Below, one piece after another: positions 694 to 64,000 of a DNA stretch of 64,000 nucleotides (positions are counted from its first letter, which is position 1; each line of letters begins with the position of its first letter). The position numbers were made by a program, and so were the translations under genes. The notes under the pieces were generated by a model. It searched no databases and was not told the DNA's origin. It saw nothing but the letters and a program-made list of their open reading frames with translations. Source of the DNA: Escherichia coli 042 (GTDB lineage: Bacteria > Pseudomonadota > Gammaproteobacteria > Enterobacterales > Enterobacteriaceae); assembly GCF_000027125.1 (NCBI RefSeq), contig NC_017626.1. One strand, written 5' to 3'.

Positions 694-861
<168 letters not shown>

Positions 862-869
862 TTCCCTGA

Positions 870-1016: not shown

Positions 1017-1026
1017 GGGGTTACCA

Positions 1027-1800: not shown

Positions 1801-2489
1801 TGATACTGACCGATCCAGAATGGCAGGCAGTTTTATTAAGCCTGAAAGTTTCTTCCCTGGCTGTGCTGTTTAGCCTGCCGTTTGGGATCTTTTTTGCCTG
1901 GTTACTGGTGCGTTGCACGTTTCCGGGCAAAGCTCTGCTCGACAGCGTACTGCATCTACCGCTGGTGTTACCGCCCGTGGTCGTCGGTTACTTATTATTA
2001 GTTTCGATGGGACGGCGCGGATTTATCGGTGAACGTCTGTATGACTGGTTTGGTCTTTCTTTCGCGTTTAGCTGGCGCGGTGCGGTTCTCGCTGCCGCTG
2101 TCATGTCTTTTCCGCTGATGGTGCGGGCGATTCGTCTGGCGCTGGAAGGTGTTGATATCAAACTGGAGCAGGCCGCAAGAACACTGGGGGCCGGGCGCTG
2201 GCGAGTTTTCTTTACTATCACGTTACCGCTGACCTTACCGGGCATTATTGTTGGTACGGTACTGGCTTTTGCTCGTTCTCTCGGTGAGTTTGGTGCAACC
2301 ATCACCTTTGTGTCGAACATTCCTGGCGAAACGCGAACTATTCCCTCTGCCATGTATACCCTGATCCAGACCCCCGGCGGGGAAAGTGGCGCGGCGAGAC
2401 TGTGCATTATTTCTATTGCGCTGGCGATGATCTCCCTGTTGATTTCAGAATGGCTGGCCAGAATCAGCCGTGAACGGGCGGGGCGCTAA
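1800..2489 (+). CDS. modB: Molybdate ABC transporter permease
   Basis: 229-aa hydrophobic ORF overlapping modA stop; ABC permease signature. Confidence 0.95.
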
Positions 2490-2491
2490 TC

Positions 2492-3550: not shown

Positions 3551-4369
3551 TTAAATCAGGTGGCTATAAATGAACCGGGCAATGCTGTCGGTGGTGTTAT
3601 CACCAATCACAATGTTGGCGCGCGCTTTTACCGCGTCATCGGCGTTGCCCATCGCCACGCCTGTACCAGCGGCTTCCAGCATACTGATATCATTAAAGTT
3701 ATCGCCGAATGCCACGACGTTTTCCATCGACCAACCTTGTGCCTCAACCCATTTCGTCAAACGTTTACCTTTGCTGTTGCCGCCGCGTGCAATATCAACC
3801 TGATCGTGCCAGGACCATTCACACTCCAGTCCCAGTTCATGTTCGACATGCTTACCAAAATGCTGCAATTGCGGCAGGTCATCGTGCGTCAGGGCGAACT
3901 TCCATACGGCGTTAACTTGTTGCGCCGTTTCAGCCAGAGAAGCGACTTGTGTGAAAGTCGGACGCTGTTCCGGCGGCAGGGTTTGCGCCCAGTTAGACGT
4001 GCGAATGACATGCCCGGTCGGGTGCTCATAGACCATTGCATCATCGACATACATCAGACCGTGAATGTGGTGTTCATTCAGCATCTCAATGAGTTGCAGG
4101 GCTTTATTAACGGGCATTGGGTCCGCTTCCAGCACGGTTTTTGCATGATAATCATACAAATAGGTGCCATTACAGCAAATAGCAGGTGTATCCAGCGCCA
4201 GCGCCTGATAAAAAGGATGAATAGCGACGTGATGGCGACCTGTGACGATGATTAATTGATAGCCTGCTTCGCGAGCGCGGGCCAGGGCTTCTATCGATGA
4301 TGGAAGCAAGGTCTTTTTCGGGGTCAATAAGGTGCCGTCTAAGTCGAGAGCAATCACGCGTGTGGTCAT
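3551..4369 (-). CDS. ybhA: HAD-family (Cof-like) sugar/pyridoxal phosphate phosphatase YbhA
   Basis: Track ORF trimmed to internal Met (MTTRVIALDLDGTLL, HAD motif I); 272 aa. Confidence 0.9.
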   Translation of the reverse strand: MTTRVIALDLDGTLLTPKKTLLPSSIEALARAREAGYQLIIVTGRHHVAIHPFYQALALDTPAICCNGTYLYDYHAKTVLEADPMPVNKALQLIEMLNEHHIHGLMYVDDAMVYEHPTGHVIRTSNWAQTLPPEQRPTFTQVASLAETAQQVNAVWKFALTHDDLPQLQHFGKHVEHELGLECEWSWHDQVDIARGGNSKGKRLTKWVEAQGWSMENVVAFGDNFNDISMLEAAGTGVAMGNADDAVKARANIVIGDNTTDSIARFIYSHLI

Positions 4370-4487
4370 GGCGTATTCCAGATTAAGGTTAAGAATTTTC
4401 TTCTGCGCGAATGGTACACCGATACCACTATCGGACAAAATTCTGCGTTTTAATTCAGCATTCACCGCCAAAAGCGACTAATTTTAG

Positions 4488-5519
<1,032 letters not shown>

Positions 5520-5531
5520 CCGCTGATTTAC

Positions 5532-5555
5532 CCGGCGCAGTCTCTTCTGCGCCGG
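5532..5555. terminator. Hairpin between convergent pgl and ybhD, possible bidirectional terminator
   Basis: CCGGCGCAG-tctctt-CTGCGCCGG perfect 9-bp stem; flanks only weakly U-rich. Confidence 0.35.
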
Positions 5556-5559
5556 TGTA

Positions 5560-6513
5560 TTAACCTATCTCCTGTAACGCATGTCTCTGGCGTTCGACGA
5601 TATTGGTCCACAAATTGTCTTTATCGTCAGTCCACAAATTAATCAGCAAGGCAAAAAAGCGTTCAGCTGCCGGAGAAAGCACGGCATCTTTGCGGCGAAT
5701 AATCCCCAATGTCCGACGTATAACCGGTTCCACCAGCGGGATACCAATAATCGAAGAGTAGGGCGCATGAGGCATTGCCAGGCCTGGAAGCGCCGAAATC
5801 CCTAGTCCTGCCTCCACCAGTCCTAATGACGTCGAAAGATGACGCACTTCGTAAAACCAGTCCAGCTTCCAGGGCTTGTCGGCTAGCTGTTGTTCTATCA
5901 ACAGTCGGTTGCCGCTGGAGGAGCGTACGCCAATCATTTTGTAACCCACTAACTCCTGCCATTCTACAAGCTGCTTTTTGGCCAATGGATGGTCACGCCG
6001 ACAGGCCAGCACGAACGGCTCGTTGACCAGGGGGGTAAAATCAATGGATGAATTTGTGACGTTGTTCATGTTTATGCCAAAGTCTGATTCGTTACACAGC
6101 ACCGATTCCATGCAATTATTCGTGCCTTGTTCCAGAATCCGCACTTTAATATTGGGATACAGCTCATTAAATTTACCAATTGCCAGTGGTAAAAAATAAA
6201 ATACTGCGGTCGGAATACACGCTAACGTCACCATACCACGATGATAAGCATTCATATCACGAATATTAAAAAGCGTTTCATCGAATTTCTTTATTAATTC
6301 CCGCGCCTCCGGGAGCAACCTTTTTCCTGCTTTTGTTAACGTAACCTTGCGAGTTGTACGCTCAAATAGTTGAATATGTAAATCCTCCTCCATCTTTTTT
6401 ATTCTTCGCGTTAATGCAGGTTGCGTAATATTGAGTAATTTAGCGGCATTGTTAAATGAACTGGACTCTGCCAGTATGACAAATGCCTTCATACTTGATA
6501 ATTCATGCTTCAT
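5560..6513 (-). CDS. ybhD: LysR-family transcriptional regulator YbhD
   Basis: Track ORF trimmed to Met at MKHELSSMKAFVILAESSSFNNAAKLLNITQPALTRRIKKME (LysR HTH); divergent from ybhH. Confidence 0.85.
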   Translation of the reverse strand: MKHELSSMKAFVILAESSSFNNAAKLLNITQPALTRRIKKMEEDLHIQLFERTTRKVTLTKAGKRLLPEARELIKKFDETLFNIRDMNAYHRGMVTLACIPTAVFYFLPLAIGKFNELYPNIKVRILEQGTNNCMESVLCNESDFGINMNNVTNSSIDFTPLVNEPFVLACRRDHPLAKKQLVEWQELVGYKMIGVRSSSGNRLLIEQQLADKPWKLDWFYEVRHLSTSLGLVEAGLGISALPGLAMPHAPYSSIIGIPLVEPVIRRTLGIIRRKDAVLSPAAERFFALLINLWTDDKDNLWTNIVERQRHALQEIG

Positions 6514-6696
6514 TATTACTCCGGAAAATGGAAGCGTCGATTTTGGGTGGCTGGCCGTTAAAAATTTTAACTGCATTTAGCCAACTTAAATTAATGAAAA
6601 AATGTTATTAATCGTTGAGCTAAAGTCATTAGAGATGCTTTGCCCTTAATGTAACCATATCGCAATAAGTTATGTTTTTAAATTGAGGGCATTATT

Positions 6697-7749
6697 ATGA
6701 AAAAAATACCCTGCGTGATGATGCGAGGTGGAACCTCGAGGGGCGCGTTCCTGTTAGCGGAACATTTACCCGAAGATCAAACGCAGCGCGATAAAATATT
6801 GATGGCAATTATGGGTTCCGGTAACGATTTGGAAATTGACGGTATTGGCGGCGGTAATCCGCTGACCAGTAAAGTCGCCATTATTAGCCATTCCAGCGAT
6901 CCGCGTGCTGATGTCGATTATCTGTTTGCTCAAGTTATCGTCCATGAGCAACGTGTCGATACCACGCCTAACTGCGGCAATATGCTGTCTGGCGTTGGGG
7001 CATTCGCCATTGAAAATGGTTTGATTGCAGCGACTTCGCCAGTTACCCGCGTACGTATCCGCAACGTCAATACGGGTACGTTCATCGAAGCTGATGTGCA
7101 AACGCCAAATGGTGTTGTCGAGTACGAGGGTAGCGCCAGAATTGACGGCGTACCGGGTACTGCCGCACCGGTTGCGCTCACTTTCCTGAATGCCGCCGGA
7201 ACCAAAACCGGAAAAATCTTCCCGACTGATAATCAGATTGATTATTTTGACGATGTCCCGGTGACCTGTATCGATATGGCGATGCCAGTTGTCATTATTC
7301 CTGCTGAATATCTGGGAAAAACAGGCTATGAATTACCGGCGGAGCTGGATGCCGACAAAGCATTATTAGCCCGCATTGAATCTATCCGTCTACAAGCGGG
7401 TAAAGCAATGGGCTTAGGCGATGTCAGTAATATGGTTATCCCTAAACCTGTGCTTATTTCTCCAGCGCAGAAAGGCGGAGCAATTAATGTGCGTTATTTT
7501 ATGCCGCATTCTTGCCATCGCGCGCTGGCGATAACCGGTGCTATTGCCATTTCCAGTAGTTGTGCATTGGAAGGCACCGTCACCCGACAAATCGTCCCTT
7601 CTGTAGGATACGGCAATATCAATATTGAACACCCCAGTGGTGCGCTCGACGTTCATTTAAGTAATGAAGGTCAGGATGCCACGACGTTACGCGCATCTGT
7701 TATTCGGACAACCAGAAAAATATTTTCCGGTGAAGTTTTTCTTCCCTGA
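6697..7749 (+). CDS. ybhH: PrpF/AcnD-accessory family isomerase YbhH
   Basis: 350-aa ORF; recalled YbhH sequence and gene order. Confidence 0.85.
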   Translation: MKKIPCVMMRGGTSRGAFLLAEHLPEDQTQRDKILMAIMGSGNDLEIDGIGGGNPLTSKVAIISHSSDPRADVDYLFAQVIVHEQRVDTTPNCGNMLSGVGAFAIENGLIAATSPVTRVRIRNVNTGTFIEADVQTPNGVVEYEGSARIDGVPGTAAPVALTFLNAAGTKTGKIFPTDNQIDYFDDVPVTCIDMAMPVVIIPAEYLGKTGYELPAELDADKALLARIESIRLQAGKAMGLGDVSNMVIPKPVLISPAQKGGAINVRYFMPHSCHRALAITGAIAISSSCALEGTVTRQIVPSVGYGNINIEHPSGALDVHLSNEGQDATTLRASVIRTTRKIFSGEVFLP

Positions 7750-7824
7750 AAAAATTCGTTGTCAGGATAAGGACAATCAATAAAGGACTTCTGTATGAGT
7801 CATACAGAAAGAACAGGATTTTAA

Positions 7825-9258
7825 ATGAATAAAAAATCGTTATGGAAGCTAATTCTGATATTAGCGATCCCATGTATTATTGGCTTTATGCCAGCTCCGG
7901 CAGGATTAAGCGAACTGGCGTGGGTGCTTTTTGGTATTTACCTGGCGGCCATTGTGGGGCTGGTTATCAAGCCTTTCCCGGAACCTGTCGTACTGTTAAT
8001 TGCCGTTGCTGCCTCAATGGTGGTGGTCGGTAACTTATCCGACGGTGCGTTTAAGACCACCGCCGTATTAAGTGGTTACTCTTCAGGTACCACCTGGCTG
8101 GTGTTCTCGGCGTTTACCTTAAGCGCCGCATTTGTGACCACCGGCTTAGGTAAACGTATAGCCTATCTGCTGATTGGTAAAATCGGTAACACCACGCTGG
8201 GTCTGGGTTACGTTACGGTATTCCTCGATCTGGTACTGGCTCCGGCAACACCGTCTAACACCGCGCGTGCGGGCGGCATTGTGTTACCGATCATCAACAG
8301 CGTGGCGGTGGCTTTGGGGTCAGAACCGGAAAAAAGCCCGCGTCGTGTTGGACATTACCTGATGATGTCCATTTACATGGTCACCAAAACCACCAGCTAT
8401 ATGTTCTTTACCGCAATGGCGGGGAACATTCTGGCGCTGAAAATGATCAACGATATTCTGCACCTGCAAATTAGCTGGGGTGGATGGGCGCTGGCCGCCG
8501 GATTGCCGGGTATCATTATGCTGCTGGTCACCCCGCTGGTGATTTACACCATGTATCCGCCAGAAATTAAGAAGGTGGATAACAAAACCATCGCCAAAGC
8601 GGGCCTTGCCGAACTGGGACCGATGAAAATCCGCGAAAAAATGCTGCTCGGTGTCTTCGTGCTGGCGCTGCTGGGCTGGATTTTCAGTAAGTCACTGGGG
8701 GTTGATGAATCCACCGTGGCAATCGTTGTTATGGCGACTATGCTGCTGCTGGGTATCGTTACCTGGGAAGACGTGGTTAAAAATAAAGGCGGCTGGAATA
8801 CCTTAATCTGGTACGGCGGTATTATCGGCTTAAGCTCCTTATTATCGAAAGTTAAATTCTTCGAATGGTTAGCTGAAGTCTTTAAAAATAACCTGGCATT
8901 TGATGGTCACGGTAACGTTGCTTTCTTCGTTATTATTTTCCTCAGCATTATCGTGCGTTATTTCTTCGCTTCCGGTAGTGCCTATATCGTTGCCATGTTA
9001 CCGGTATTTGCCATGCTGGCGAACGTCTCCGGCGCACCGTTAATGTTAACCGCGCTGGCACTGTTGTTCTCCAACTCCTATGGCGGCATGGTTACTCACT
9101 ATGGCGGCGCGGCAGGTCCGGTCATCTTTGGCGTGGGTTATAACGATATTAAATCCTGGTGGTTGGTCGGTGCGGTACTGACGATATTAACCTTCCTGGT
9201 GCATATCACCCTTGGCGTGTGGTGGTGGAATATGCTGATCGGCTGGAACATGCTGTAA
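7825..9258 (+). CDS. ybhI: DASS-family anion transporter YbhI
   Basis: 477-aa polytopic membrane ORF; gene order ybhH-ybhI-ybhJ. Confidence 0.85.
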   Translation: MNKKSLWKLILILAIPCIIGFMPAPAGLSELAWVLFGIYLAAIVGLVIKPFPEPVVLLIAVAASMVVVGNLSDGAFKTTAVLSGYSSGTTWLVFSAFTLSAAFVTTGLGKRIAYLLIGKIGNTTLGLGYVTVFLDLVLAPATPSNTARAGGIVLPIINSVAVALGSEPEKSPRRVGHYLMMSIYMVTKTTSYMFFTAMAGNILALKMINDILHLQISWGGWALAAGLPGIIMLLVTPLVIYTMYPPEIKKVDNKTIAKAGLAELGPMKIREKMLLGVFVLALLGWIFSKSLGVDESTVAIVVMATMLLLGIVTWEDVVKNKGGWNTLIWYGGIIGLSSLLSKVKFFEWLAEVFKNNLAFDGHGNVAFFVIIFLSIIVRYFFASGSAYIVAMLPVFAMLANVSGAPLMLTALALLFSNSYGGMVTHYGGAAGPVIFGVGYNDIKSWWLVGAVLTILTFLVHITLGVWWWNMLIGWNML

Positions 9259-9387
9259 ATATACTCGTCATACTTCAAGTTGCATGTGCTGCGTCTGCGT
9301 TCGCTCACCCCAGTCACTTACTTATGTAAGCTCCTGGGGATTCACTCGATTGTCGCCTTCCTGCAACTCGAATTATTTAGAGTATAT
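9259..9387. repeat. ERIC (IRU) enterobacterial repetitive intergenic element
   Basis: ~129 bp with imperfect terminal inverted repeats and the recalled ERIC core GTAAGCTCCTGGGGATTCAC / AAGTGACTGGGGTGAGCG. Confidence 0.7.
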
Positions 9388-9440
9388 CCATTTATTATCT
9401 TTCTGCGCACTTCTCGGTGCGCAGATATCTGGAGCATTTG

Positions 9441-11702
9441 ATGATCAAGTTATCTGAAAAAGGCGTGTTTCTCGCCAGTAATAACGAAATAATTGCCGAA
9501 GAACATTTCACCGGCGAAATTAAAAAAGAAGAAGCAAAAAAAGGCACTATTGCCTGGTCTATTCTCTCTTCTCATAATACGTCCGGAAATATGGATAAAC
9601 TTAAAATTAAGTTTGATTCATTAGCCTCTCACGATATTACCTTTGTTGGTATTGTACAGACCGCTAAAGCGTCCGGTATGGAACGTTTCCCGCTGCCGTA
9701 TGTGCTGACCAACTGCCATAACTCACTTTGCGCCGTCGGCGGCACCATTAACGGTGATGACCATGTTTTTGGTTTATCGGCGGCTCAGCGTTATGGCGGT
9801 ATTTTTGTGCCTCCGCATATTGCGGTCATCCATCAATATATGCGTGAGATGATGGCAGGCGGCGGCAAAATGATCCTCGGGTCAGACAGCCACACCCGTT
9901 ACGGTGCATTAGGGACAATGGCAGTCGGTGAGGGCGGCGGCGAGTTGGTAAAACAGCTGCTTAATGACACCTGGGATATCGACTATCCGGGAGTTGTTGC
10001 GGTGCATCTGACCGGAAAACCAGCGCCGTATGTGGGGCCACAGGATGTGGCGCTGGCTATCATCGGTGCCGTGTTCAAAAACGGCTACGTCAAAAACAAA
10101 GTGATGGAATTCGTAGGTCCCGGTGTTGCTGCGCTCTCTACCGATTTCCGTAACAGCGTTGACGTTATGACCACGGAAACGACCTGTTTAAGTTCTGTCT
10201 GGCAAACCGATGAAGAAGTCCATAACTGGCTGGCGCTGCACGGTCGCGGCCAGGATTACTGCCAGCTTAACCCTCAACCGATGGCGTACTACGATGGCTG
10301 CATCAGCGTTGATTTAAGCGCCATCAAACCAATGATTGCGCTGCCGTTCCACCCGAGCAACGTGTATGAAATCGACATGCTGAACCAGAACCTGACCGAC
10401 ATTCTGCGTGAGATTGAAATTGAGTCCGAACGCGTGGCGCACGGTAAAGCCAAACTCTCGCTGCTGGATAAAGTGGAAAATGGTCGCCTGAAAGTGCAGC
10501 AGGGGATTATCGCGGGCTGTTCTGGCGGTAACTACGAAAACGTCATCGCGGCGGCGAATGCACTGCGCGGTCAATCCTGTGGCAATGACACCTTCTCGTT
10601 AGCGGTTTACCCGTCATCACAGCCGGTGTTTATGGATTTAGCCAAAAAAGGCGTGGTAGCAGATTTGATTGGCGCAGGCGCAATCATCAGAACCGCGTTC
10701 TGCGGCCCATGCTTTGGCGCGGGCGATACGCCAATCAACAACGGTTTGAGTATTCGCCACACCACGCGTAACTTCCCGAACCGCGAAGGCTCTAAGCCAG
10801 CCAATGGGCAGATGTCAGCGGTGGCGTTGATGGACGCTCGTTCTATCGCTGCGACTGCGGCAAACGGTGGCTATTTAACCTCTGCCAGCGAACTTGATTG
10901 CTGGGACAACGTACCGGAGTACGCCTTCGATGTAACTCCGTATAAAAACCGTGTTTATCAGGGCTTTGTGAAAGGGGCGACCCAGCAACCATTGATTTAC
11001 GGACCGAACATAAAAGACTGGCCAGAATTGGGGGCGCTAACTGACAATATCGTCCTCAAAGTGTGCTCGAAGATCCTCGACGAAGTGACCACCACCGACG
11101 AACTGATCCCTTCCGGTGAAACCTCTTCTTATCGTTCAAATCCGATTGGTCTGGCGGAGTTTACCCTGTCACGCCGCGATCCAGGTTATGTTGGCAGAAG
11201 TAAAGCGACTGCTGAGCTGGAAAATCAGCGTCTGGCGGGGAATGTCAGCGAGCTGACAGAGGTGTTTGCGCGCATTAAGCAGATTGCTGGTCAGGAGCAT
11301 ATTGATCCGCTGCAAACTGAAATTGGCAGCATGGTCTATGCGGTGAAACCAGGCGATGGTTCAGCGCGTGAGCAGGCGGCGAGCTGCCAGCGTGTGATTG
11401 GCGGTCTGGCGAATATTGCCGAGGAGTACGCGACTAAACGCTACCGTTCTAACGTCATCAACTGGGGGATGTTACCGCTGCAGATGGCGGAAGCACCAAC
11501 GTTTGAAGTGGGGGATTACATTTACATCCCTGGCATTAAAGCAGCGCTGGATAATCCGGGTACGACGTTTAAAGGTTATGTGATCCATGAAGATGCGCCG
11601 GTAACGGAAATTACGCTTTACATGGAAAGCCTGACGGCCGAAGAGCGCGAGATTATCAAGGCGGGTAGTTTGATTAACTTCAATAAAAACCGTCAGATGT
11701 AA
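9441..11702 (+). CDS. ybhJ: Aconitase-family protein YbhJ
   Basis: Track ORF trimmed to [11 protein letters not shown]; 753 aa, aconitase-like. Confidence 0.85.
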
Positions 11703-11727
11703 AAAAGGCGCTATGAAATATAGCGCC
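11701..11727 (-). terminator. Rho-independent terminator for ybhC
   Basis: On the minus strand, hairpin GGCGCTAT-atttc-ATAGCGCC followed by TTTTTT. Confidence 0.55.
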
Positions 11728-11739
11728 CTGTTTCATTAA

Positions 11740-11770
11740 CCCGATGGTTCAGACTATCGGGTTTTCTTTT
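11740..11770 (+). terminator. Rho-independent terminator for ybhJ
   Basis: CCCGAT-N10-ATCGGG hairpin followed by TTTTCTTTT. Confidence 0.6.
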
Positions 11771-13054
11771 TTACTTCTTCGCCTCTGCAACCACTTTACT
11801 ACCCACGCCGCGGTTATTGTATTCCCACATGCGGTTGTAGTTAGTGTCATTCAGATTGCGTTGTATTTCGTCGCTATCGTCAACGCTGCCGGTGTTACCT
11901 GCGAATGGACGATTGGAAATCACCGCATCGGCCCACGGTTTCGCCGTGTTAAAACCTTCGTTGATGGCGCTATCACGGATCACCACCTGACCGTTGGTAT
12001 TGGCATCAACATCCAGCGAACGACCCAGTTGCGCCACGCCATCACCGGAAGCATTGAAACGGCTGTTTACGGCGAGGAAACCGTAATAGATGTTAGACAG
12101 CGTAGCCGGTGCAAACACATACGCTTCTTGCTGAGTACGTGAGTTCACCACGCGGAATTCGGTGTTATCGAACACCACTGCGCCGCGACCAGAAACGATA
12201 TCCACATCCCCTTCAATGTAACTGTTGGTCACCAGAGTACGCGGCTGACGGTTGGTTTCCAGACGGTTTTGCACACCACTGTTGGTGACAAAGAAGGTAT
12301 TTTGACGACCGAGAATGTTGACGTTATTGATCTGCACTTTGTCGCCATCAGTACGCAGTGCCACCGCCGGATGGTTACCTGCATCTACGCTATCGCCCAG
12401 CGTGTTTTCGATGGTCAGGTTTTGCAGTTGCAGGCCATTGTTTTGTGACCAGAAGACCGCAGAGCAGAGAACGCCGATACTGTCGCTGCGTTTGCTCTGG
12501 CAGCTATCGTACATATACCACGCTGGTTTACCTGGCATATATTTGCCGCGCGGGTTGACGTCATGACGCCAGTCGGCAGGGCTCATGCCCCCATCAAGGG
12601 AAAGCCCAATCTTCACATCAATCGGTTTTTCACCTGTACCGTACAGAGTAATTCCACCCGGAGCGGCAGGGACATATACCGTTCCCTGATACTCACCAGG
12701 CATCACGGCAATATACTGGCGCTTGTTGGTGCGCTTGATAATTGCCGCATCTACCGCCGCCTGAATCGTGGTATGCGTTACACCTTGAGTACCCGCCGGG
12801 CCGACAACAAAGTCAGGTTGCGCAGGCAGGGTAATCGGGGAAGGATTCCACGCTGCCGCACCTGGTGTCAGGGATGCAAAATAGTGTTGAGCATCGAAAT
12901 TCTGCGCTTCTTTTGCCGACAGAATCGGGCGAGAAGAGGTACCAGGCGCGGTTTGATCAGAAGGACGTTGATCGGGCGGTGTTGAGCTACAGGCGGTCAG
13001 CGTCACGCCAAAAGCCAATGCCAGCGCCAGACGGGAAACTGAAAATGTGTTCAC
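11771..13054 (-). CDS. ybhC: Outer-membrane lipoprotein YbhC, pectinesterase-like
   Basis: 427-aa ORF with lipoprotein signal LTAC; last chromosomal gene before attB-lambda. Confidence 0.9.
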   Translation of the reverse strand: MNTFSVSRLALALAFGVTLTACSSTPPDQRPSDQTAPGTSSRPILSAKEAQNFDAQHYFASLTPGAAAWNPSPITLPAQPDFVVGPAGTQGVTHTTIQAAVDAAIIKRTNKRQYIAVMPGEYQGTVYVPAAPGGITLYGTGEKPIDVKIGLSLDGGMSPADWRHDVNPRGKYMPGKPAWYMYDSCQSKRSDSIGVLCSAVFWSQNNGLQLQNLTIENTLGDSVDAGNHPAVALRTDGDKVQINNVNILGRQNTFFVTNSGVQNRLETNRQPRTLVTNSYIEGDVDIVSGRGAVVFDNTEFRVVNSRTQQEAYVFAPATLSNIYYGFLAVNSRFNASGDGVAQLGRSLDVDANTNGQVVIRDSAINEGFNTAKPWADAVISNRPFAGNTGSVDDSDEIQRNLNDTNYNRMWEYNNRGVGSKVVAEAKK

Positions 13055-13100
13055 AGGTTGCTCCGGGCTATGAAATAGAAAAATGAATCCGTTGAAGCCT

Positions 13101-13115
13101 GCTTTTTTATACTAA
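13101..13115. other. attL core (B-O-P') of lambda-type integration; P' arm follows to ~13188
   Basis: GCTTTTTTATACTAA followed by GTTGGCATTATAAAAAAGCATTGCTTATCAATTTGTTGCAACGAACAGGTCACTATCAGTCAAAATAAAATCATTATTTGATTTC, the recalled lambda P' arm. Confidence 0.95.
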
Positions 13116-13188
13116 GTTGGCATTATAAAAAAGCATTGCTTATCAATTTGTTGCAACGAACAGGTCACTATCAGTCAAAATAAAATCA

Positions 13189-14259
13189 TTATTTGATTTC
13201 AATTTTGTCCCACTCCCTGCCTCTGTCATCACGATACTGTGATGCCATGGTGTCCGACTTATGCCCGAGAAGATGTTGAGCAAACTTATCGCTTATCTGC
13301 TTCTCATAGAGTCTTGCAGACAAACTGCGCAACTCGTGAAATGTAGGCGGATCCCCTTCGAAGGAAAGACCTGATGCTTTTCGTGCGCGCATAAAATACC
13401 TTGATACTGTGCCGGATGAAAGCGGTTCACGACGAGTAGATGCAATTATGGTTTCTCCGCCAAGAATCTCTTTGCATTTATCAAGTGTTTCCTTCATTGA
13501 TATCCCGAGAGCATCAACATGCAATGTTGTAGGGATGGCAATTTTTACACCTGTTTTGCTTTGCTCGACATAAAGATATCCATCTACGATATCAGACCAC
13601 TTCATTTCGCATAAATCACCAACTCGCTGCCCGGTAACAACAGCCAGTTCCATTGCAAGTCTGAGCCAACATGGTGATGATTCTGCTGCTTGATAAATTT
13701 TCAGGTATTCGTCAGCCGTAAGTCTTGATCTCCTTACCTCTGATTTTGCTGCGCGAGTGGCAGCGACCGGGTTTGTTGTTATATGGCCTTCAGCTATTGC
13801 CTCTCGGAATGCATCGCTTAGTGTTGATCTGATTAACTTGGCTGACGCCGCCTTGCCCTCGTCTATGTATCCATTGAGCATTGCCGCAATTTCTTTTGTG
13901 GTGATGTTTTCAAGTGGAGCATCAGGCAGACCCCTCCTTATTGCTTTAATTTTGCTCATGTAATTTATGAGTGTCTTCTGCTTGATTCCTCTGTTGGCGA
14001 GGATTTTTTCGTAGCGATCAAGCCATGAATGTAACGTAACAGAATTATCACTGTTGATTCTCGCTGTCAGAGGCTTGTGTTTGTGTCCTGAAAATAACTC
14101 AATGTTGGCCTGTATAGCTTCAGTGATTGCTATCCTCCTGTCTCGGCCTAATCCAAACTCTTTACCCGTCCTTGGGTCCCTGTAGCAGTAATATCCATTG
14201 TTTCTTATATAAAGGTTAGGGGGTAAATCCCGGCGCTCATGACTTCGCCTTCTTCCCAT
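13189..14259 (-). CDS. int: Lambda integrase (tyrosine recombinase)
   Basis: 356 aa, MGRRRSHERRDLPPNLYIRNNGYYCYRDPRTGKEF..., essentially identical to recalled lambda Int. Confidence 0.97.
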   Translation of the reverse strand: MGRRRSHERRDLPPNLYIRNNGYYCYRDPRTGKEFGLGRDRRIAITEAIQANIELFSGHKHKPLTARINSDNSVTLHSWLDRYEKILANRGIKQKTLINYMSKIKAIRRGLPDAPLENITTKEIAAMLNGYIDEGKAASAKLIRSTLSDAFREAIAEGHITTNPVAATRAAKSEVRRSRLTADEYLKIYQAAESSPCWLRLAMELAVVTGQRVGDLCEMKWSDIVDGYLYVEQSKTGVKIAIPTTLHVDALGISMKETLDKCKEILGGETIIASTRREPLSSGTVSRYFMRARKASGLSFEGDPPTFHELRSLSARLYEKQISDKFAQHLLGHKSDTMASQYRDDRGREWDKIEIK

Positions 14260-53926: not shown

Positions 53927-53941
53927 GCTTTTTTATACTAA
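53927..53941. other. attR core (P-O-B'); lambda P arm lies at ~53770-53926
   Basis: Second copy of GCTTTTTTATACTAA followed by bacterial CTTGAGCG; upstream CAGGTCACTAATACCATCTAAGTAGTTGATTCATAGTGACTGGATATGTTGTGTTTT matches recalled lambda P arm. Confidence 0.95.
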
Positions 53942-54031
53942 CTTGAGCGAAACGGGAAGGTAAAAAGACAAAAAGTTGTTTTTAATACCTTTAAGTGATA
54001 CCAGATGGCATAGCGCCATCTGGCAGAGTGA

Positions 54032-54508
54032 TTAACTAAACATCGCAGTAATCGAGGCGCTTGCCAGAGAATGGAAATGGACGTTAAACCCGACCATCGC
54101 GCCGCTGGCACCTTCATCGACATCAATACGTTCTACATCCAGCGCGTGAACGGTAAAAATGTAGCGATGGGTTTCGCCTTTCGGCGGCGCTGCACCATCG
54201 TACCCGGTTTTACCAAAGTCGGTACGCGTCTGCAAAACGCCGTCTGGCATTGCTACCAGACCAGAGCCAAACCCTTGCGGTAATACGCGGGTATCAGCGG
54301 GTAAATTAACAACTACCCAGTGCCACCAGCCGGAGCCGGTTGGCGCATCCGGGTCGTAGCAGGTGACAACAAAACTTTTCGTTCCCGCAGGAACATCATC
54401 CCACGCCAGATGCGGTGAAACATTATCGCCATCGTAACCCATGCCGTTAAAGACATGACGATGTGGCAACTTATCGCCATCGCGCAGATCATTACTGATG
54501 AGTTTCAT
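54032..54508 (-). CDS. ybhB: PEBP-family protein YbhB
   Basis: 158 aa; first chromosomal gene right of attB-lambda. Confidence 0.9.
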   Translation of the reverse strand: MKLISNDLRDGDKLPHRHVFNGMGYDGDNVSPHLAWDDVPAGTKSFVVTCYDPDAPTGSGWWHWVVVNLPADTRVLPQGFGSGLVAMPDGVLQTRTDFGKTGYDGAAPPKGETHRYIFTVHALDVERIDVDEGASGAMVGFNVHFHSLASASITAMFS

Positions 54509-54566
54509 GAACCCTCCTTTCTAGTTTGCAGAAAGTGTAGCCAGAAACCCTCACGCTGACTTCCCG

Positions 54567-55856
54567 TTATTGGCAAAAAAATGTTTCATCCTGCACCGCA
54601 CGATTAACCGCTGCGGTCAGACGCTGCAACTGTTGCGGGAGAATAATATAGGGCGGCATCAGGTAAATCAGTTTGCCAAAAGGCCGGATCCAGACACCCT
54701 GTTCGACAAAGAATTTTTGCAGCGCTGCCATATTCACCGGACGAGTGGTTTCGACCACGCCAATGGCCCCTAGCACGCGCACATCGGCAACCATTTTGGC
54801 ATCACGGGCTGGTGCCAGTTGCTCGCGCAGTTGTACTTCAATAGCCACCACCTGCTGCTGCCAGTCGCCAGATTCGAGAATCGCCAGGCTGGCGTTTGCT
54901 GCCGCGCAGGCTAGCGGATTGCCCATAAAAGTTGGCCCATGCATAAAGCAACCGGCTTCGCCGTTACTGATGGTTTCCGCAACCTCGCGCGTGGTGAGTG
55001 TGGCGGAAAGGGTCATTGTACCGCCGGTTAAGGCTTTACCGAGGCACAAAATGTCCGGCGCGATATCTGCATGTTCACAGGCAAACAGTTTGCCAGTACG
55101 ACCAAATCCGGTGGCGATCTCGTCGGCAATCAGCAAGATACCTTCGCGATCGCACATTTTGCGGATTCGTTTTAACCATTCCGGATGGTAGATGCGCATC
55201 CCGCCTGCGCCCTGGACAATCGGTTCAATGATCACCGCCGCGATTTCATGACGATGCGCCGCCATCAGGCGGGCAAAGCCCACCATATCGCGCTCATCCC
55301 ATTCACCATCCATGCGGCTTTGCGGGGCGGGAGCAAACAAGTTTTCTGGCAGATAGCCTTTCCACAGACTGTGCATTGAGTTATCCGGATCGCACACCGA
55401 CATCGCGCCAAAGGTATCGCCATGATAACCATTGCGGAAGGTCAGAAAACGCTGGCGCGCTTCGCCTTTGGCTTGCCAGTACTGCAACGCCATTTTCATC
55501 GCCACTTCCACCGCTACGGAACCGGAGTCCGCGAGAAAAACGCATTCCAGCGGTTGCGGCGTCATTGCCACCAGTTTGCGGCACAGCTCAATGGCTGGCG
55601 CATGGGTGATACCGCCAAACATCACATGCGACATGGCATCAATTTGCGACTTCATCGCCGCATTAAGCTGCGGGTGATTGTAACCGTGGATCGCCGCCCA
55701 CCAGGACGACATACCGTCAACCAGGCGTCTGCCGTCAGACAAAATTAGCTCGCAACCTTCGGCGCTCGCCACCGGATAAACCGGTAGCGGGGAGGTCATG
55801 GATGTGTATGGGTGCCAGATATGGCGTTGGTCAAAGGCAAGATCGTCCGTTGTCAT
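54567..55856 (-). CDS. bioA: Adenosylmethionine-8-amino-7-oxononanoate aminotransferase
   Basis: Track ORF trimmed to [20 protein letters not shown]; 429 aa; divergent from bioBFCD. Confidence 0.95.
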
Positions 55857-55864
55857 AATCGACT

Positions 55865-55898
55865 TGTAAACCAAATTGAAAAGATTTAGGTTTACGAG
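55865..55898. promoter_or_regulatory. bio operator (BirA binding site) with divergent bioA/bioB promoters
   Basis: Imperfect palindrome TTGTAAACC-N-GGTTTACGA between bioA and bioB starts. Confidence 0.75.
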
Positions 55899-55942
55899 TC
55901 TACACCGAATTAACAACAAAAAACACGTTTTGGAGAAGCCCC

Positions 55943-56983
55943 ATGGCTCACCGCCCACGCTGGACATTGTCGCAAGTCACAGAATTATTTGAAAAACCGT
56001 TGCTGGATCTGCTGTTTGAAGCGCAGCAGGTGCATCGTCAGCATTTCGATCCACGTCAGGTGCAGGTCAGCACTTTGCTGTCAATTAAGACCGGAGCTTG
56101 TCCGGAAGATTGCAAATACTGCCCGCAAAGCTCGCGCTACAAAACCGGGCTGGAAGCCGAGCGGTTGATGGAAGTTGAACAGGTGCTGGAGTCGGCGCGC
56201 AAAGCGAAAGCGGCAGGATCGACGCGCTTCTGCATGGGCGCGGCGTGGAAGAATCCCCACGAACGCGATATGCCCTACCTGGAACAAATGGTGCAGGGAG
56301 TAAAAGCGATGGGGCTGGAGGCGTGTATGACGCTGGGTACGTTGAGTGAATCTCAGGCGCAGCGCCTTGCGAATGCCGGGCTGGATTACTACAACCACAA
56401 CCTCGACACCTCGCCGGAGTTTTACGGCAATATCATCACCACACGCACTTATCAGGAACGCCTCGATACGCTGGAAAAAGTGCGCGATGCCGGGATCAAA
56501 GTCTGCTCAGGTGGCATTGTGGGTTTAGGCGAAACGGTAAAAGATCGCGCCGGATTATTACTGCAACTGGCAAACCTGCCGACGCCGCCGGAAAGCGTGC
56601 CAATCAACATGCTCGTGAAGGTGAAAGGTACTCCACTGGCAGATAACGATGATGTCGATGCCTTTGATTTTATTCGCACCATTGCCGTAGCGCGGATCAT
56701 GATGCCGACCTCTTACGTGCGCCTTTCTGCCGGACGCGAGCAGATGAACGAACAGACTCAGGCGATGTGCTTTATGGCCGGGGCTAACTCGATTTTCTAC
56801 GGTTGCAAACTGCTAACCACGCCGAATCCGGAAGAAGATAAAGACCTGCAACTGTTCCGCAAACTGGGGCTAAATCCACAGCAAACTGCCGTGCTGGCAG
56901 GGGATAACGAACAACAGCAGCGTCTGGAGCAGGCACTGATGACCCCGGACACTGACGAATATTACAACGCGGCAGCACTATGA
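55943..56983 (+). CDS. bioB: Biotin synthase
   Basis: 346 aa; radical-SAM CxxxCxxC (CPEDCKYC). Confidence 0.97.
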
Positions 56984-58134
56984 GCTGGCAGGAGAAAATC
57001 AACGCGGCGCTCGATGCGCGGCGTGCTGCCGATGCCCTGCGTCGCCGTTATCCGGTGGCGCAAGGGGCCGGACGCTGGCTGGTGGCGGATGATCGCCAGT
57101 ATCTGAACTTTTCCTGCAATGATTACCTCGGCTTAAGCCATCATCCGGACATCATTCGTGCATGGAAGCAGGGAGCGGAGCAATTTGGCGTCGGTAGCGG
57201 CGGTTCCGGTCACGTCAGCGGTTATAGCGTGGCGCATCAGGCGCTGGAAGAAGAACTGGCCGAGTGGCTGGGCTATTCGCGGGCACTGCTGTTTATCTCT
57301 GGTTTTGCCGCTAACCAGGCAGTTATTACCGCGATGACGGCGAAAGAGGACCGTATTGTTGCCGATCGGCTGAGTCACGCCTCATTGCTGGAAGCTGCCA
57401 GTTTAAGCCCGGCGCAGCTTCGCCGTTTTACCCATAACGATGTCGCTCATCTGGCGCGACTGCTTGCTTCCCCCTGTCCGGGGCAGCAACTGGTGGTGAC
57501 AGAAGGCGTGTTCAGCATGGACGGCGATAGTGCGCCACTGGCGGAAATCCAGCAGGTAACGCAACAGCACAATGGCTGGTTGATGGTCGATGATGCCCAC
57601 GGCACGGGCGTTATCGGGGAGCAGGGGCGCGGCAGCTGCTGGTTGCAAAAGGTAAATCCAGAATTGCTGGTGGTGACTTTTGGCAAAGGATTTGGCGTCA
57701 GCGGGGCAGCGGTGCTTTGCTCCGATGCGGTGGCGGATTATCTACTGCAATTTGCCCGCCATCTTATTTACAGCACCAGTATGCCGCCCGCTCAGGCGCA
57801 GGCATTACGTGCGTCGCTGGCGGTCATTCGCAGTGATGAGGGTGATGCACGGCGCGAAAAACTGGCGGCACTCATTACGCGTTTTCGTGCCGGAGTACAG
57901 GATTTGCCGTTTACGCTTGCTGATTCATGCAGCGCCATCCAGCCATTGATCGTCGGTGATAACAGCCGTGCGTTACAACTGGCAGAAAAACTGCGCCAGC
58001 AAGGCTGCTGGGTCACGGCGATTCGCCCACCAACCGTACCTGCTGGTACTGCGCGACTGCGCTTAACACTAACCGCCGCGCATGAAATGCAGGATATCGA
58101 CCGTCTGCTGGAGGTGCTGCATGGCAACGGTTAA
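56980..58134 (+). CDS. bioF: 8-amino-7-oxononanoate synthase
   Basis: 384 aa, PLP aminotransferase class II. Confidence 0.97.
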
Positions 58135-58876
58135 TAAACAAGCCATTGCAGCGGCATTTGGTCGGGCAGCCGCGCACTATGAGCAACATGCGGATCTACA
58201 GCGCCAGAGTGCTGACGTCTTACTGGCAATGCTTCCACAGCGTAAATACACCCACGTACTGGACGCGGGTTGTGGACCTGGCTGGATGAGCCGCCACTGG
58301 CGGGAACGTCACGCGCAGGTGACGGCGTTAGATCTCTCGCCGCCAATGCTTGTTCAGGCACGCCAGAAGGATGCCGCAGACCATTATCTGGCGGGAGATA
58401 TCGAATCCCTGCCGTTAGCGACTGCAACCTTCGATCTTGCATGGAGCAATCTCGCGGTGCAGTGGTGCGGTAATTTATCCACGGCACTCCGCGAGCTATA
58501 CAGGGTGGTGCGCCCCGGAGGCGTGGTCGCGTTTACCACGCTGGTGCAGGGATCGCTCCCTGAATTACATCAGGCGTGGCAGGTGGTGGACGAGCGCCCG
58601 CATGCTAATCGCTTTTTACCGCCAGATAAAATCGAACAGTCGCTGAACGGCCTGCATTATCAACATCATATTCAGCCCATCACGCTGTGGTTTGATGATG
58701 CGCTCAGTGCCATGCGTTCGCTGAAAGGCATCGGTGCCACGCATCTTCATGAAGGGCGCGACCCGCGAATATTAACGCGTTCGCAGTTGCAGCGATTACA
58801 ACTGGCCTGGCCGCAACAACAGGGGCGATATCCTCTGACGTATCATCTTTTTTTGGGAGTAATTGCTCGTGAGTAA
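58121..58876 (+). CDS. bioC: Malonyl-ACP O-methyltransferase
   Basis: Trimmed to [17 protein letters not shown]; SAM-binding motif LDAGCGPG. Confidence 0.95.
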
Positions 58877-59546
58877 ACGTTATTTTGTCACCGGAACAGA
58901 TACCGAAGTGGGGAAAACTGTCGCCAGTTGTGCACTTTTACAAGCCGCGAAGGCAGCAGGTTATCGGACGGCAGGTTATAAACCGGTCGCCTCTGGCAGC
59001 GAAAAGACCCCGGAAGGCTTACGTAATAGTGACGCGCTGGCGTTACAGCACAACAGCAGCCTGCAGCTGGATTACGCAACGGTAAATCCTTACACCTTCG
59101 CAGAACCCACTTCGCCGCACATCATCAGCGCACAAGAGGGCAGGCCGATAGAATCATTGGTAATGAGCGCCGGATTACGCGGGCTTGAACAACAGGCTGA
59201 CTGGGTGTTAGTGGAAGGTGCTGGCGGCTGGTTTACGCCGCTTTCTGACACTTTCACTTTTGCGGATTGGGTAACACAGGAACAACTGCCGGTGATACTG
59301 GTAGTTGGTGTGAAACTCGGCTGTATTAATCACGCGATGTTGACGGCACAGGCAATACAACACGCCGGGCTGACTCTGGCGGGTTGGGTGGCGAATGATG
59401 TCACGCCTCCGGGAAAACGTCACGCTGAATATATGACCACGCTCACCCGCATGATTCCCGCGCCGCTGCTGGGAGAGATCCCCTGGCTTGCAGAAAATCC
59501 AGAAAATGCGGCAACCGGAAAGTACATAAACCTTGCCTTGTTGTAG
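58869..59546 (+). CDS. bioD: Dethiobiotin synthetase
   Basis: Probable GTG start giving (M)[17 protein letters not shown]-loop; overlaps bioC stop. Confidence 0.93.
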
Positions 59547-59705
59547 CCATCCTGTATTTGGTTAAATTGCGAGCGAGATCGCGTCTTCGATTGACTGCAA
59601 TTTAACCAATTAAATTCTAAAATAATCACGAAAAAAATTTTACTTCCGCATCATGCGATGTATGTGGGAATTGCCCAGGCGGCGGGGGATAGGGGCTGCA
59701 GACAG

Positions 59706-59728
59706 TTATCCACTATTCCTGTGGATAA
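59706..59728. promoter_or_regulatory. Inverted pair of DnaA boxes in the bioD-uvrB intergenic region
   Basis: TTATCCACT (59706-59714) and TGTGGATAA (59720-59728), the latter a perfect TTATCCACA box. Confidence 0.6.
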
Positions 59729-60032
59729 CCATGTGTATTAGAGTTAGAAAACACGAGGCAAGCGAGAGAATACGCGGCTTGCACGCGAATTGGCGTTAAA
59801 GACGGCTCAAAGAAATATCTTTTATTTTTTAACTGGTTAGATAATTGCAATGGCAGTCACTGAAGAGGCATCTCTTGCCATAAAACTGTCATCACTCATC
59901 TTGACAAATGTTAAAAAAGCCGTTGCTTTGGGGATAACCCGGTAAGGCCGGAGTTTTATCTCGCCACAGAGTAAATTTTGCTCATGTTTGACAGCGGAGT
60001 TTACGCTGTAACAGAAATATTATGGTGAGAAA

Positions 60033-60055
60033 CTGTTTTTTTATCCAGTATAATT
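60033..60055 (+). promoter_or_regulatory. uvrB LexA box and -10 element
   Basis: CTGTTTTTTTATCCAG (CTGT-N8-ACAG-like) followed by TATAAT. Confidence 0.75.
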
Positions 60056-60124
60056 TGTTGGCATAATTAAGTACGACGAGTAAAATTACATACCTGCCCG
60101 CCCAACTCCTTCAGGTAGCGACTC

Positions 60125-62146
60125 ATGAGTAAACCGTTCAAACTGAATTCCGCTTTTAAACCTTCTGGCGATCAGCCAGAGGCGATTCGACGTCTCGAAG
60201 AGGGGCTGGAAGATGGCCTGGCGCACCAGACGTTACTTGGCGTGACTGGCTCCGGGAAAACCTTCACCATTGCCAATGTCATTGCTGATCTTCAGCGCCC
60301 TACCATGGTACTTGCGCCCAACAAAACGCTGGCGGCCCAGTTGTATGGCGAAATGAAAGAGTTCTTCCCGGAAAACGCGGTGGAATATTTCGTCTCCTAC
60401 TACGACTACTATCAGCCGGAAGCCTATGTACCGAGTTCCGACACCTTCATTGAGAAAGATGCCTCGGTTAACGAACATATTGAACAGATGCGTTTGTCCG
60501 CCACCAAAGCGATGCTGGAGCGGCGTGATGTGGTTGTGGTGGCGTCTGTTTCCGCGATTTATGGTCTGGGCGATCCTGATTTATATCTCAAGATGATGCT
60601 CCATCTCACGGTCGGCATGATTATCGATCAGCGCGCGATCCTGCGCCGACTGGCGGAGCTGCAATACGCTCGTAATGATCAGGCATTCCAGCGTGGTACT
60701 TTCCGCGTTCGTGGTGAGGTGATTGATATCTTCCCAGCAGAATCGGATGACATTGCACTTCGCGTGGAGCTGTTTGACGAGGAAGTGGAACGATTGTCGT
60801 TATTTGACCCGCTCACCGGGCAGATTGTTTCCACTATTCCACGTTTTACCATCTACCCGAAAACGCACTACGTCACGCCGCGCGAGCGCATCGTACAGGC
60901 GATGGAAGAGATCAAAGAAGAACTGGCCGCCAGACGCAAAGTGCTGTTGGAGAATAACAAACTGCTGGAAGAGCAGCGGCTGACCCAGCGTACCCAGTTT
61001 GATCTGGAGATGATGAACGAGCTGGGCTACTGTTCCGGGATTGAGAACTACTCGCGCTTCCTCTCCGGTCGTGGACCGGGTGAGCCACCGCCGACGCTGT
61101 TTGATTACCTGCCTGCCGATGGGCTGCTGGTGGTCGATGAATCACACGTCACCATTCCGCAAATTGGCGGCATGTATCGCGGTGACCGGGCGCGTAAAGA
61201 GACGCTGGTGGAGTACGGCTTCCGCCTGCCATCAGCGCTGGATAACCGTCCGCTGAAATTTGAAGAGTTCGAAGCATTAGCGCCGCAAACCATCTATGTT
61301 TCGGCGACGCCGGGTAATTACGAGCTGGAAAAATCGGGCGGCGATGTGGTGGATCAGGTGGTGCGTCCAACCGGATTGCTGGATCCGATTATCGAAGTGC
61401 GGCCAGTGGCGACACAGGTCGATGATCTTCTATCGGAGATTCGTCAGCGAGCGGCAATTAACGAACGCGTACTGGTTACAACTCTGACCAAGCGAATGGC
61501 GGAAGATCTCACGGAATATCTCGAAGAACACGGCGAGCGCGTGCGTTATCTTCACTCCGATATCGACACCGTCGAGCGTATGGAGATTATCCGCGACTTG
61601 CGTCTGGGCGAGTTCGACGTGCTGGTGGGGATCAACTTACTGCGCGAAGGTCTGGATATGCCGGAGGTTTCGCTGGTGGCGATCCTCGACGCCGACAAAG
61701 AAGGCTTCCTGCGTTCTGAACGTTCGTTAATCCAGACTATTGGTCGTGCGGCGCGTAACGTTAACGGTAAAGCGATTCTCTACGGCGATAAGATCACCCC
61801 GTCAATGGCGAAAGCGATTGGCGAAACCGAACGTCGTCGCGAGAAACAGCAGAAGTACAACGAGGAACACGGTATTACGCCGCAGGGCTTGAACAAGAAA
61901 GTGGTCGATATCCTGGCGCTGGGGCAGAACATTGCTAAAACCAAAGCGAAGGGCAGAGGAAAATCGCGACCGATTGTTGAGCCGGATAATGTGCCGATGG
62001 ATATGTCGCCTAAAGCGTTGCAGCAGAAGATCCATGAACTGGAAGGGTTGATGATGCAACACGCGCAGAATCTGGAGTTCGAAGAAGCGGCGCAAATTCG
62101 TGACCAGTTGCATCAGCTGCGTGAATTGTTCATTGCCGCGTCGTGA
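60125..62146 (+). CDS. uvrB: Excinuclease ABC subunit B
   Basis: 673 aa; helicase motifs [12 protein letters not shown]. Confidence 0.97.
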
Positions 62147-62152
62147 CAAGAT

Positions 62153-62183
62153 GAAAAAGCCGGAATGTTCTTCCGGTTCAGAT
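62153..62183 (-). terminator. Terminator hairpin between uvrB and ybhK, likely bidirectional
   Basis: GCCGGAA-tgttc-TTCCGGT stem; on minus strand followed by CTTTTTCATC. Confidence 0.45.
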
Positions 62184-62292
62184 TAACGATCAAGTCAAAA
62201 AAGTGCTCGAACGGTCCCCTCGTCCCTCCGGGGAGAGGGTGAGGGGAACAGGTCGCATTGCACCAGAAGCCTGGTCAGCAATCTCGGCCACA

Positions 62293-63261
<969 letters not shown>

Positions 63262-63454
63262 TTAACCTGCCAATATTGAGGATACAAACTATTTTCTTCT
63301 ACCTCTAAAGGATGAAGCACGCTATGCCTCTCTGATGATGTATATCAAAGTAAAACCGCCATTTTCCCTTATTCTGTAGCGAAATAGCACGATCATGACG
63401 CTATATACATGATTACATAGCGAAAGTGTGGATGGTAAAAATCTCATTTACACG

Positions 63455-63597
63455 CTAGTATCGGCTTAACCACTAAACACTCTAGCCTCTGCACCTGGGT
63501 CAACTGATACGGTGCTTTGGCCGTGACAATGCTCGTAAAGATTGCCACCAGGGCGAAGAAAGAAATGACTTCGCCTCCCGTATCTGGAAAGGTGTAC
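63455..63597 (+). ncRNA. Candidate Moco riboswitch in the moaA leader
   Basis: 5' UTR ending ...CGCCTCCCGTATCTGGAAAGGTGTAC ATG with potential RBS-sequestering pairing; moaA is known to carry a Moco RNA element. Confidence 0.45.
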
Positions 63598-64000
63598 ATG
63601 GCTTCACAACTGACTGATGCATTTGCGCGTAAGTTTTACTACTTGCGCCTGTCGATTACTGATGTGTGTAACTTTCGTTGCACCTACTGCCTGCCGGATG
63701 GCTACAAACCGAGCGGCGTCACCAATAAAGGCTTTCTTACCGTCGATGAAATTCGCCGGGTTACGCGCGCCTTTGCCAGTCTGGGCACCGAAAAAGTGCG
63801 CCTGACAGGCGGTGAGCCGTCTTTACGCCGCGACTTTACCGATATCATCGCCGCTGTGCGGGAAAACGACGCTATCCGCCAGATTGCGGTCACCACCAAT
63901 GGTTACCGTCTGGAACGCGATGTGGCGAACTGGCGCGATGCGGGACTTACTGGCATCAACGTCAGCGTTGATAGCCTTGACGCTCGCCAGTTTCATGCCA
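63598..64000 (+). CDS. moaA: GTP 3',8-cyclase MoaA, N-terminal part (runs off window end)
   Basis: [35 protein letters not shown] radical-SAM motif; no stop before window end. Confidence 0.95.

Follow-up and report, generated by a model that had tools for sequence, protein, structure and literature searches.

The Moco RNA motif was described in 2007-2008. In Escherichia coli K-12 the moaA leader carries this motif, and a moaA translational lacZ fusion driven from a constitutive promoter is repressed more than 3-fold upon induction of the moa operon; mutation M1 in P3 abolishes the repression and compensatory mutation M2 restores it (PMC2408646). Knockouts of modC, mogA and moeA abolish repression, whereas a mobA knockout still represses (PMC2408646), which argues that the signal is Moco rather than molybdate or bis-MGD. 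Moco is unstable, so that direct binding was beyond the reach of Regulski 2008 (PMC2408646); we found no biochemical demonstration of direct Moco binding to motif RNA in the literature up to 2024, and according to a 2024 paper the exact Moco-associated metabolite is still unidentified (PMC10845959). Two further layers of control have been reported for the K-12 leader. CsrA binds it and activates moaA translation, at two sites that both lie within the aptamer according to one review, by the laboratory behind the CsrA work (PMC7652899), and at just one site in the aptamer region according to another (PMC4347634), and it changes moaA expression without a change in mRNA level (PMC7652899, PMC4347634). 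Rho is implicated as well: moaA has an associated Rho-dependent 3' end, and the rho R66S mutation raises expression of a moaA fusion more than 2-fold (PMC7815308). Here we compare with these systems the moaA leader found near the right end of a 64,000-nucleotide stretch of the E. coli 042 chromosome (hereafter the window).

The interval 62500-64000 was screened by cmscan against the 4227 families of Rfam 15 at a permissive threshold, and the Rfam consensus structure was mapped onto the window in order to obtain helix coordinates. Relatives were collected by a DNA-pattern scan for the 3' core GCCTCCC-N6-GGAAAGG in one genome per species, which gave at least 120 loci. A covariance model of our own, R1, was built with the mapped structure from four enteric copies only, namely those of the window, K-12, E. 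albertii and a Citrobacter. All coordinates refer to the (+) strand unless indicated otherwise.

RF01055 (Molybdenum/Tungsten riboswitch aptamer, Moco RNA motif) matches 63466-63610 (+) with 102.9 bits, against a gathering score of 36, at an E-value of 4e-26 in the screened interval and of 1.7e-24 for the whole window. The match is full length, model positions 1 to 135 of 135, and defines an element of 145 nt, to which R1 gives 176.9 bits. Two further Rfam matches in 62500-64000 (E-values of 4.6 and 8) are noise, and RF01055 is the sole match above any Rfam gathering score within the 64 kb. The preliminary description had proposed a candidate Moco riboswitch in the moaA leader, had named an Rfam covariance-model scan as the check and had taken a lack of any significant match as the outcome that would speak against it; the scan returned the significant, full-length RF01055 match, by which the candidate is borne out. 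The coordinates given there, 63455-63597, cover 132 of the 145 nt, starting 11 nt and ending 13 nt too early: 63455-63465 is promoter DNA outside the structured element and includes a -10-like TAGTAT, while 63598-63610, which had been left out, contains the start codon and contributes to the pairs 63601/63471, 63603/63469 and 63604/63468 in the outer part of P1.

The element lies in the moaA 5' UTR and overlaps the moaA start. Translation from 63598 gives the N-terminus of the radical-SAM enzyme MoaA (GTP 3',8-cyclase), of which the first 134 codons (63598-64000) are present before the window ends; moaB and moaC follow downstream in the RefSeq annotation of a 100%-identical strain. The RefSeq order in strain BEC1-S17-ESBL-09 is uvrB, yvcK (ybhK in K-12), riboswitch, moaA, moaB and moaC. 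A "molybdenum cofactor riboswitch" is annotated by NCBI PGAP in a 100%-identical E. coli genome at exactly the coordinates of the Rfam match, and the same annotation is found in six of six further carrier genomes inspected. Judged from sequence and mapped structure, the element is the E. coli moaA Moco riboswitch, a P3-containing member of RF01055. Since PGAP places it at the same coordinates, the finding is already known: this is an ordinary and publicly annotated riboswitch.

All five helices, P1 to P5, of the multistem-junction architecture map onto the window, and 34 of the 41 consensus pairs are canonical. The seven non-canonical pairs are found in the P2 internal loop UCU/UUU, as an A.C in P3, as an A.A in P1 and at two P4-tip positions. 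P1 is formed by a 5' strand at 63468-63482, which contains the anti-RBS strand ACAC-C at 63477-63482, and a 3' strand at 63591-63604, which runs through the start codon into moaA codons 2-3. P2 pairs 63485-63501 with 63506-63521 and includes, next to its internal loop, a variant tetraloop-receptor region. P3 (63523-63527 with 63544-63548) has a 16-nt loop and its one A.C mismatch at 63526/63545, P4 (63551-63561 with 63566-63576) carries a GAAA tetraloop at 63562-63565 closed by A-U, and P5 is a mini-hairpin of CC 63577-63578 with GG 63586-63587 that is part of the invariant 3' core. This conserved core, GCCUCCC-N6-GGAAAGG, is exact at 63573-63592. The 5' junction CUCUAGCC is the enteric variant, one change away from the consensus CUCCGAGCC and common to K-12 and E. 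albertii, with J1/2 reading CUAGC in the window against CGAGC in the family consensus. The canonical 11-nt tetraloop receptor is CCUAAG ... UAUGG; the P2 bulge of the window reads CCUGGG ... UACGG, an enteric, non-canonical variant that is identical to K-12 and as such a putative receptor.

The purine-rich RBS GGAAAGGUG (63586-63594) ends 3 nt before the moaA ATG and is split between the P5 and P1 3' strands. Its bases GGUG at 63591-63594 pair with 63478-63482 in P1, the sequestering pairing being that of 63476-63482 with 63591-63596. In the K-12 leader the RBS has likewise been placed within P1, from which an OFF switch was predicted (Regulski 2008, PMC2408646). An RBS-sequestering helix had already been suggested in the preliminary description on the basis of the string CGCCTCCCGTATCTGGAAAGG. 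The string indeed stands just before the start codon, with a single occurrence at 63572-63592 followed by TGTAC and the moaA ATG at 63598-63600, and the idea of sequestration agrees with both the published model and the mapped pairing (PMC2408646). The helix concerned is P1 and not the string itself, which is composed of the P4 3' end, the P5 mini-hairpin, an AAA linker and, of the P1 3' strand, no more than the two leading bases. Downstream of the aptamer the window has no intrinsic terminator; the sole terminator-like site (63186-63199) lies well upstream of the leader, in the first yvcK codons.

According to the explanation that we favor, the leader would be transcribed from a ModE-activated start S1 or an FNR-dependent start S2, and its RNA would fold into the five-helix aptamer P1-P5 with a multistem junction and the GAAA tetraloop on P4. 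Accumulating Moco, or a closely related molybdopterin species from past the MoeA and MogA steps, would stabilise the aptamer including P1. Because the P1 3' strand holds both the moaA RBS and the start codon, translation initiation would then be blocked and Moco synthesis feedback-repressed. Untranslated leader and early coding RNA would in turn be prone to Rho-dependent termination, and CsrA binding to the leader would counteract repression and activate translation. We assign a probability of about 0.93 to this explanation as a whole, i.e. a P3-type RF01055 riboswitch in the moaABCDE leader that acts as an OFF switch by P1 occluding the RBS. That the RNA itself would bind the cofactor, and which chemical species it would bind, are parts of the model that we infer.

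Covariation among the relatives supports the helices. At an E-value of at most 0.001, R1 identified 53 instances in 100 sources among the matches listed, 52 of them beyond the window, and these span Gammaproteobacteria, Deltaproteobacteria, Firmicutes, Chloroflexi, Actinobacteria and others. In the alignment of these 53 members, again among the matches listed, 89.8% of the cells are paired; sliding the 3' partners by 1-3 columns reduces this share to 36-44%. The covariation score is 0.514 versus about 0.07, 33 of the 41 pairs show compensatory changes, and the observed values were never attained in 500 shuffles. These figures are those of an alignment that had been fitted to the model, and the collecting pattern in part imposes the invariance of P5 and of the P4 base. 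Per helix, among the same 53 listed members, the pairs of P1 (helices 1-3) covary, as do all five pairs of P3, and compensatory changes are found in 10 of the 11 proximal P2 pairs and in 7 of the 11 P4 pairs; P5 is invariant in 53 of 53, its bases having belonged to the collecting pattern. The P4 tip is G-GAAA-C in 37 of the 53 listed members and A-GAAA-U in eight, the window included.

These data bear on a rival in which the RNA is a conserved regulatory element but the signal is sensed by a protein, which would bind Moco or molybdopterin first and the leader afterwards. The literature reports no direct ligand-binding assay (PMC2408646, PMC10845959), at least one protein, CsrA, does bind the leader, and in-line probing of the ligand-free K-12 RNA, which fits P3, P5 and the junctions, disagrees with much of P2, so that P2 is not fully formed as predicted (PMC2408646). 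However, a motif that is kept with compensatory changes across many phyla among the matches listed would need an equally widespread protein partner, and no such partner has been found for the leader region (PMC2408646). The near-invariant junction, the tetraloop with its receptor and the use of alternative platforms including terminators are typical of metabolite-binding aptamers (PMC2408646), and P3 tracks molybdenum rather than tungsten metabolism, which points to discrimination within the RNA. We consider a protein sensor very unlikely and retain the metabolite-binding aptamer. Riboswitch classes whose ligand-RNA complex is still to be demonstrated are few, and the Moco class is among them; a stable analogue or a structure would close this long-standing gap.

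RF01055 covers both molybdenum and tungsten types, which raises the question of a variant that senses the tungsten cofactor (Tuco/Wco). Motif RNAs that lack P3, the proposed Tuco/Wco sensors, share with the window the core P1, P2, P4, P5 and the junction nucleotides, but they often use terminator platforms, whereas the window combines P3 with a translational platform and has no terminator after the aptamer. P3 was found in 30 of the 53 R1 members, including the window, and its region is shorter than 12 nt in the other 23, among the matches listed. In the survey of Regulski and collaborators the only genes with which representatives carrying P3 were associated were Moco-related, and tungstate was without effect on the K-12 leader (PMC2408646). 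With P3 present at 63523-63548, tungsten-cofactor sensing is highly improbable here, and the element is assigned by this helix to the putative Moco-sensing rather than the Tuco-sensing subclass.

Compared with its gammaproteobacterial relatives (loci L035, L063, L082, L087, L096, L104, L093, L016 and L026), the window shares P3 and an identical 3' core GCCUCCC-N6-GGAAAGG with the Moco riboswitches of Vibrio, Aliivibrio, Aeromonas, Shewanella and Psychromonas. In the Vibrio, Aeromonas and Shewanella copies the start codon follows GGAAAGGUG by a few bases, as it does in the window, which argues for a shared translational platform with the RBS in P1. Differences concern J1/2, with consensus CUCCGAGC in these relatives as opposed to CUCUAGC in the enteric copies, and the P4 tip, which is G-GAAA-U in several (e.g. 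Vibrio), A-GAAA-U in Aeromonas and the enterics and mostly G-GAAA-C in the wider family. The P2 and P3 sequences of these relatives differ from those of the window, with compensatory changes.

Single-sequence folding gives another structure. The minimum free energy (MFE) is -40.1 kcal/mol, against -24.6 for the consensus structure (-31.2 when extended), with a z-score of -1.73 versus shuffles. The MFE fold keeps P3 and P4 and departs from the aptamer elsewhere: a 7-bp perfect complementarity, GAUACGG 63506-63512 with CCGUAUC 63578-63584, joins distal P2 to the 3' core, and a second anti-SD, CACCU 63492-63496, pairs with the SD at 63590-63594. As a ligand-free state conserved in the family this fold was rejected, since in the alignment of the 53 members among the matches listed it pairs 62.5% of the cells versus 61.5% in shuffles and has a covariation score of 0.097 versus 0.087. 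It may be a ligand-free conformer specific to E. coli or the Enterobacteriaceae, or else an artefact of prediction. It might also be related to the P2 misfit in in-line probing and to the two conformations that a 2025 study found for the moaA leader in vitro (PMC13271884).

Within the species the locus is nearly universal. For the 801 bases around the element a match was found in 5424 of 5426 complete E. coli genomes, with full identity in four and an identity of 99% or more in 373; the 145-nt element itself is found in 5424 of the 5426, with at least 99% identity in 5015. Among the sampled E. coli haplotypes only two positions vary within the non-coding stretch 63332-63634, whereas in the coding DNA of yvcK and moaA on either side K-12 and the window differ by about 4%, mostly at a spacing of multiples of three bases. 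This contrast indicates strong purifying selection on the entire control region, which comprises an FNR-like site, a ModE operator, the promoters and the riboswitch. The conservation also answers the suspicion that the element resembles the motif by chance or is a degenerate relic without function, a reading in line with a fold not significantly more stable than its shuffles. An E-value of 4e-26 against a curated model, presence in 5424 of 5426 genomes and a conservation far above that of the neighbouring coding DNA refute it, and the sequence is two bases away from the working K-12 leader; we give this reading practically no credence.

The upstream region fits the dual control known from K-12, where the S1 start is ModE-activated and lies 131 nt before the ATG, and the FNR-dependent S2 start lies 87 nt further upstream (PMC2408646). 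By these distances S1 would start at about 63467 and S2 at about 63380. Upstream of the proximal promoter S1 we found the ModE operator-like palindrome CGCTATATACATGATTACATAGCG (63399-63422), identical to K-12. Exactly two sites in the 64 kb match the ModE half-site pattern TATAT-N7-TAYAT, versus 0.05 expected: one is 63402-63418, and the other, TATATTGACGCCTACAT at 987-1003 just upstream of modA, served as an internal positive control. The FNR consensus is TTGAT-N4-ATCAA, and the FNR-like site ATGATgtatATCAA (63335-63348), upstream of the distal promoter S2 and identical to K-12, has one mismatch to it. At one mismatch the pattern occurs six times in the window versus 2.95 expected, which is non-significant alone; the site was kept as consistent with the literature. 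Direct reading of the sequence gives a weak -10-like hexamer for S1, TAGTAT at 63456-63461, and a consensus sigma-70 scan of 63150-63700 returned no strong site, so that both starts were placed by the literature distances together with this weak hexamer. The lack of a strong site in the scan is as expected, since the promoters are activator-dependent. Coordinate mapping suggests that the same 64 kb also include acrZ, modABC and, truncated by the left end, modE, such that the regulator ModE and the transporter ModABC, which feed the riboswitch signal, apparently share the window with the moaA leader.

Compared with the K-12 leader, the element occupies the same locus (the yvcK/ybhK-moaA intergenic region), has the same length and helices and is identical at 143 of 145 bases; the upstream ModE and FNR sites, the RBS and the start codon are identical as well. 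Two substitutions set it apart: around the S1 start, in the unpaired 5' end, T replaces A at 63466, and in the P4 tip A replaces G at 63559. The latter turns a non-canonical G.A (63559/63568) into A.A, beside the A.G at 63560/63567, and lowers the predicted stability of P4 by about 2 kcal/mol (-10.6 kcal/mol versus -12.6 in K-12). Membership of RF01055 is unaffected, as the K-12 allele scores 103.6 bits and the window 102.9, practically unchanged. Allele-specific 31-nt probes identified A at 63559 in 185 and G in 5231 of the 5426 E. coli genomes, and since the equivalent base is G in E. albertii and Citrobacter, A63559 is the derived state. Six of six sampled carriers of A63559 also have T63466, and their flanks are 98.8-100% identical to the window versus 96.1% for K-12. 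The shared T63466 and the related flanking haplotype in these six carriers point to a single minority lineage, marked by the two substitutions as a linked derived pair, and recurrent mutation at 63559 was rejected on the same grounds. The minority allele A63559 is the only private feature of the element in the window, and the window allele (A63559 with T63466) is presumed to behave like that of K-12.

Typical CsrA targets have GGA motifs in a hairpin tip and at the RBS. A63559 removes the GGA at 63558-63560, such that the aptamer of the window contains one GGA (63586-63588) versus two in K-12; a third, at 63430, is present in S2 transcripts only. Since one review places two CsrA sites within the aptamer and the K-12 aptamer has exactly two GGA, the P4-tip GGA that was lost is probably one of the reported sites, and we regard it as a candidate. 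The resemblance to CsrA-regulated leaders such as those of ymdA and glgC lies in the K-12 leader being bound by CsrA at two sites with translation activated (PMC7652899). Unlike in the ymdA and glgC leaders, the CsrA target here overlaps a metabolite-responsive aptamer, and the allele of the window has one aptamer GGA rather than two. In the A63559 lineage moaA translation might be partly uncoupled from CsrA, or tetraloop docking or Moco sensitivity altered, a possibility that we put forward tentatively and would sooner doubt than accept. If true, this would be a natural allele by which the two inputs of the leader, protein and metabolite, could be told apart. The minority allele is a ready-made natural variant that bears on the role of the P4-tip GGA in CsrA control of Moco synthesis.

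CsrA also bears on what the main output of the leader is. The primary event could be that Rho ends transcription prematurely, within the leader or early in the coding sequence, and RBS occlusion would then be secondary; the Rho-dependent 3' end, the more than 2-fold rise of the moaA fusion in rho R66S (PMC7815308) and the lack of an intrinsic terminator downstream of the aptamer in the window would allow this. However, the repression seen in K-12 is that of a translational fusion expressed from a constitutive promoter (PMC2408646), CsrA alters expression at a constant mRNA level (PMC7652899, PMC4347634), and RBS and start codon both lie inside P1. Rho-dependent termination is an expected consequence of blocked translation and as such an added layer, not a replacement. 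A primary role for Rho thus appears unlikely, and occlusion of the RBS by P1 is retained as the main output.

Some observations concern the remainder of the 64 kb. In the uvrB-yvcK intergenic region of the E. albertii locus L060 (2300-2341) the ES036 (CssrF) sRNA is matched with 43.1 bits versus a gathering score of 37.6; at the equivalent place of the window (about 62160-62200) no Rfam match to ES036 reaches threshold. ARAGORN identified no tRNA genes in the 64 kb; the lysT/valT tRNA cluster of the reference strain lies further upstream, and the lack of tRNA genes together with the single Rfam match indicated that the window is not collinear with that strain. A lambdoid prophage of about 40.8 kb (13101-53941) is inserted between ybhC and ybhB, the classical location of lambda attB. 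The lambda core GCTTTTTTATACTAA has exactly two copies, which form direct repeats at 13101-13115 and 53927-53941, and on either side the DNA (1-13119 and 53927-64000) shows 99.9-100% identity to that of a strain without an insertion at this site. An integrase-sized ORF is found at 13189-14259 (-) in the prophage, whose early region shows 94-98% identity to phages of the HK97, HK446, Huey and Gally type over 35-46% of the query; as phage identity is confined to that part of the query, the prophage is a mosaic.
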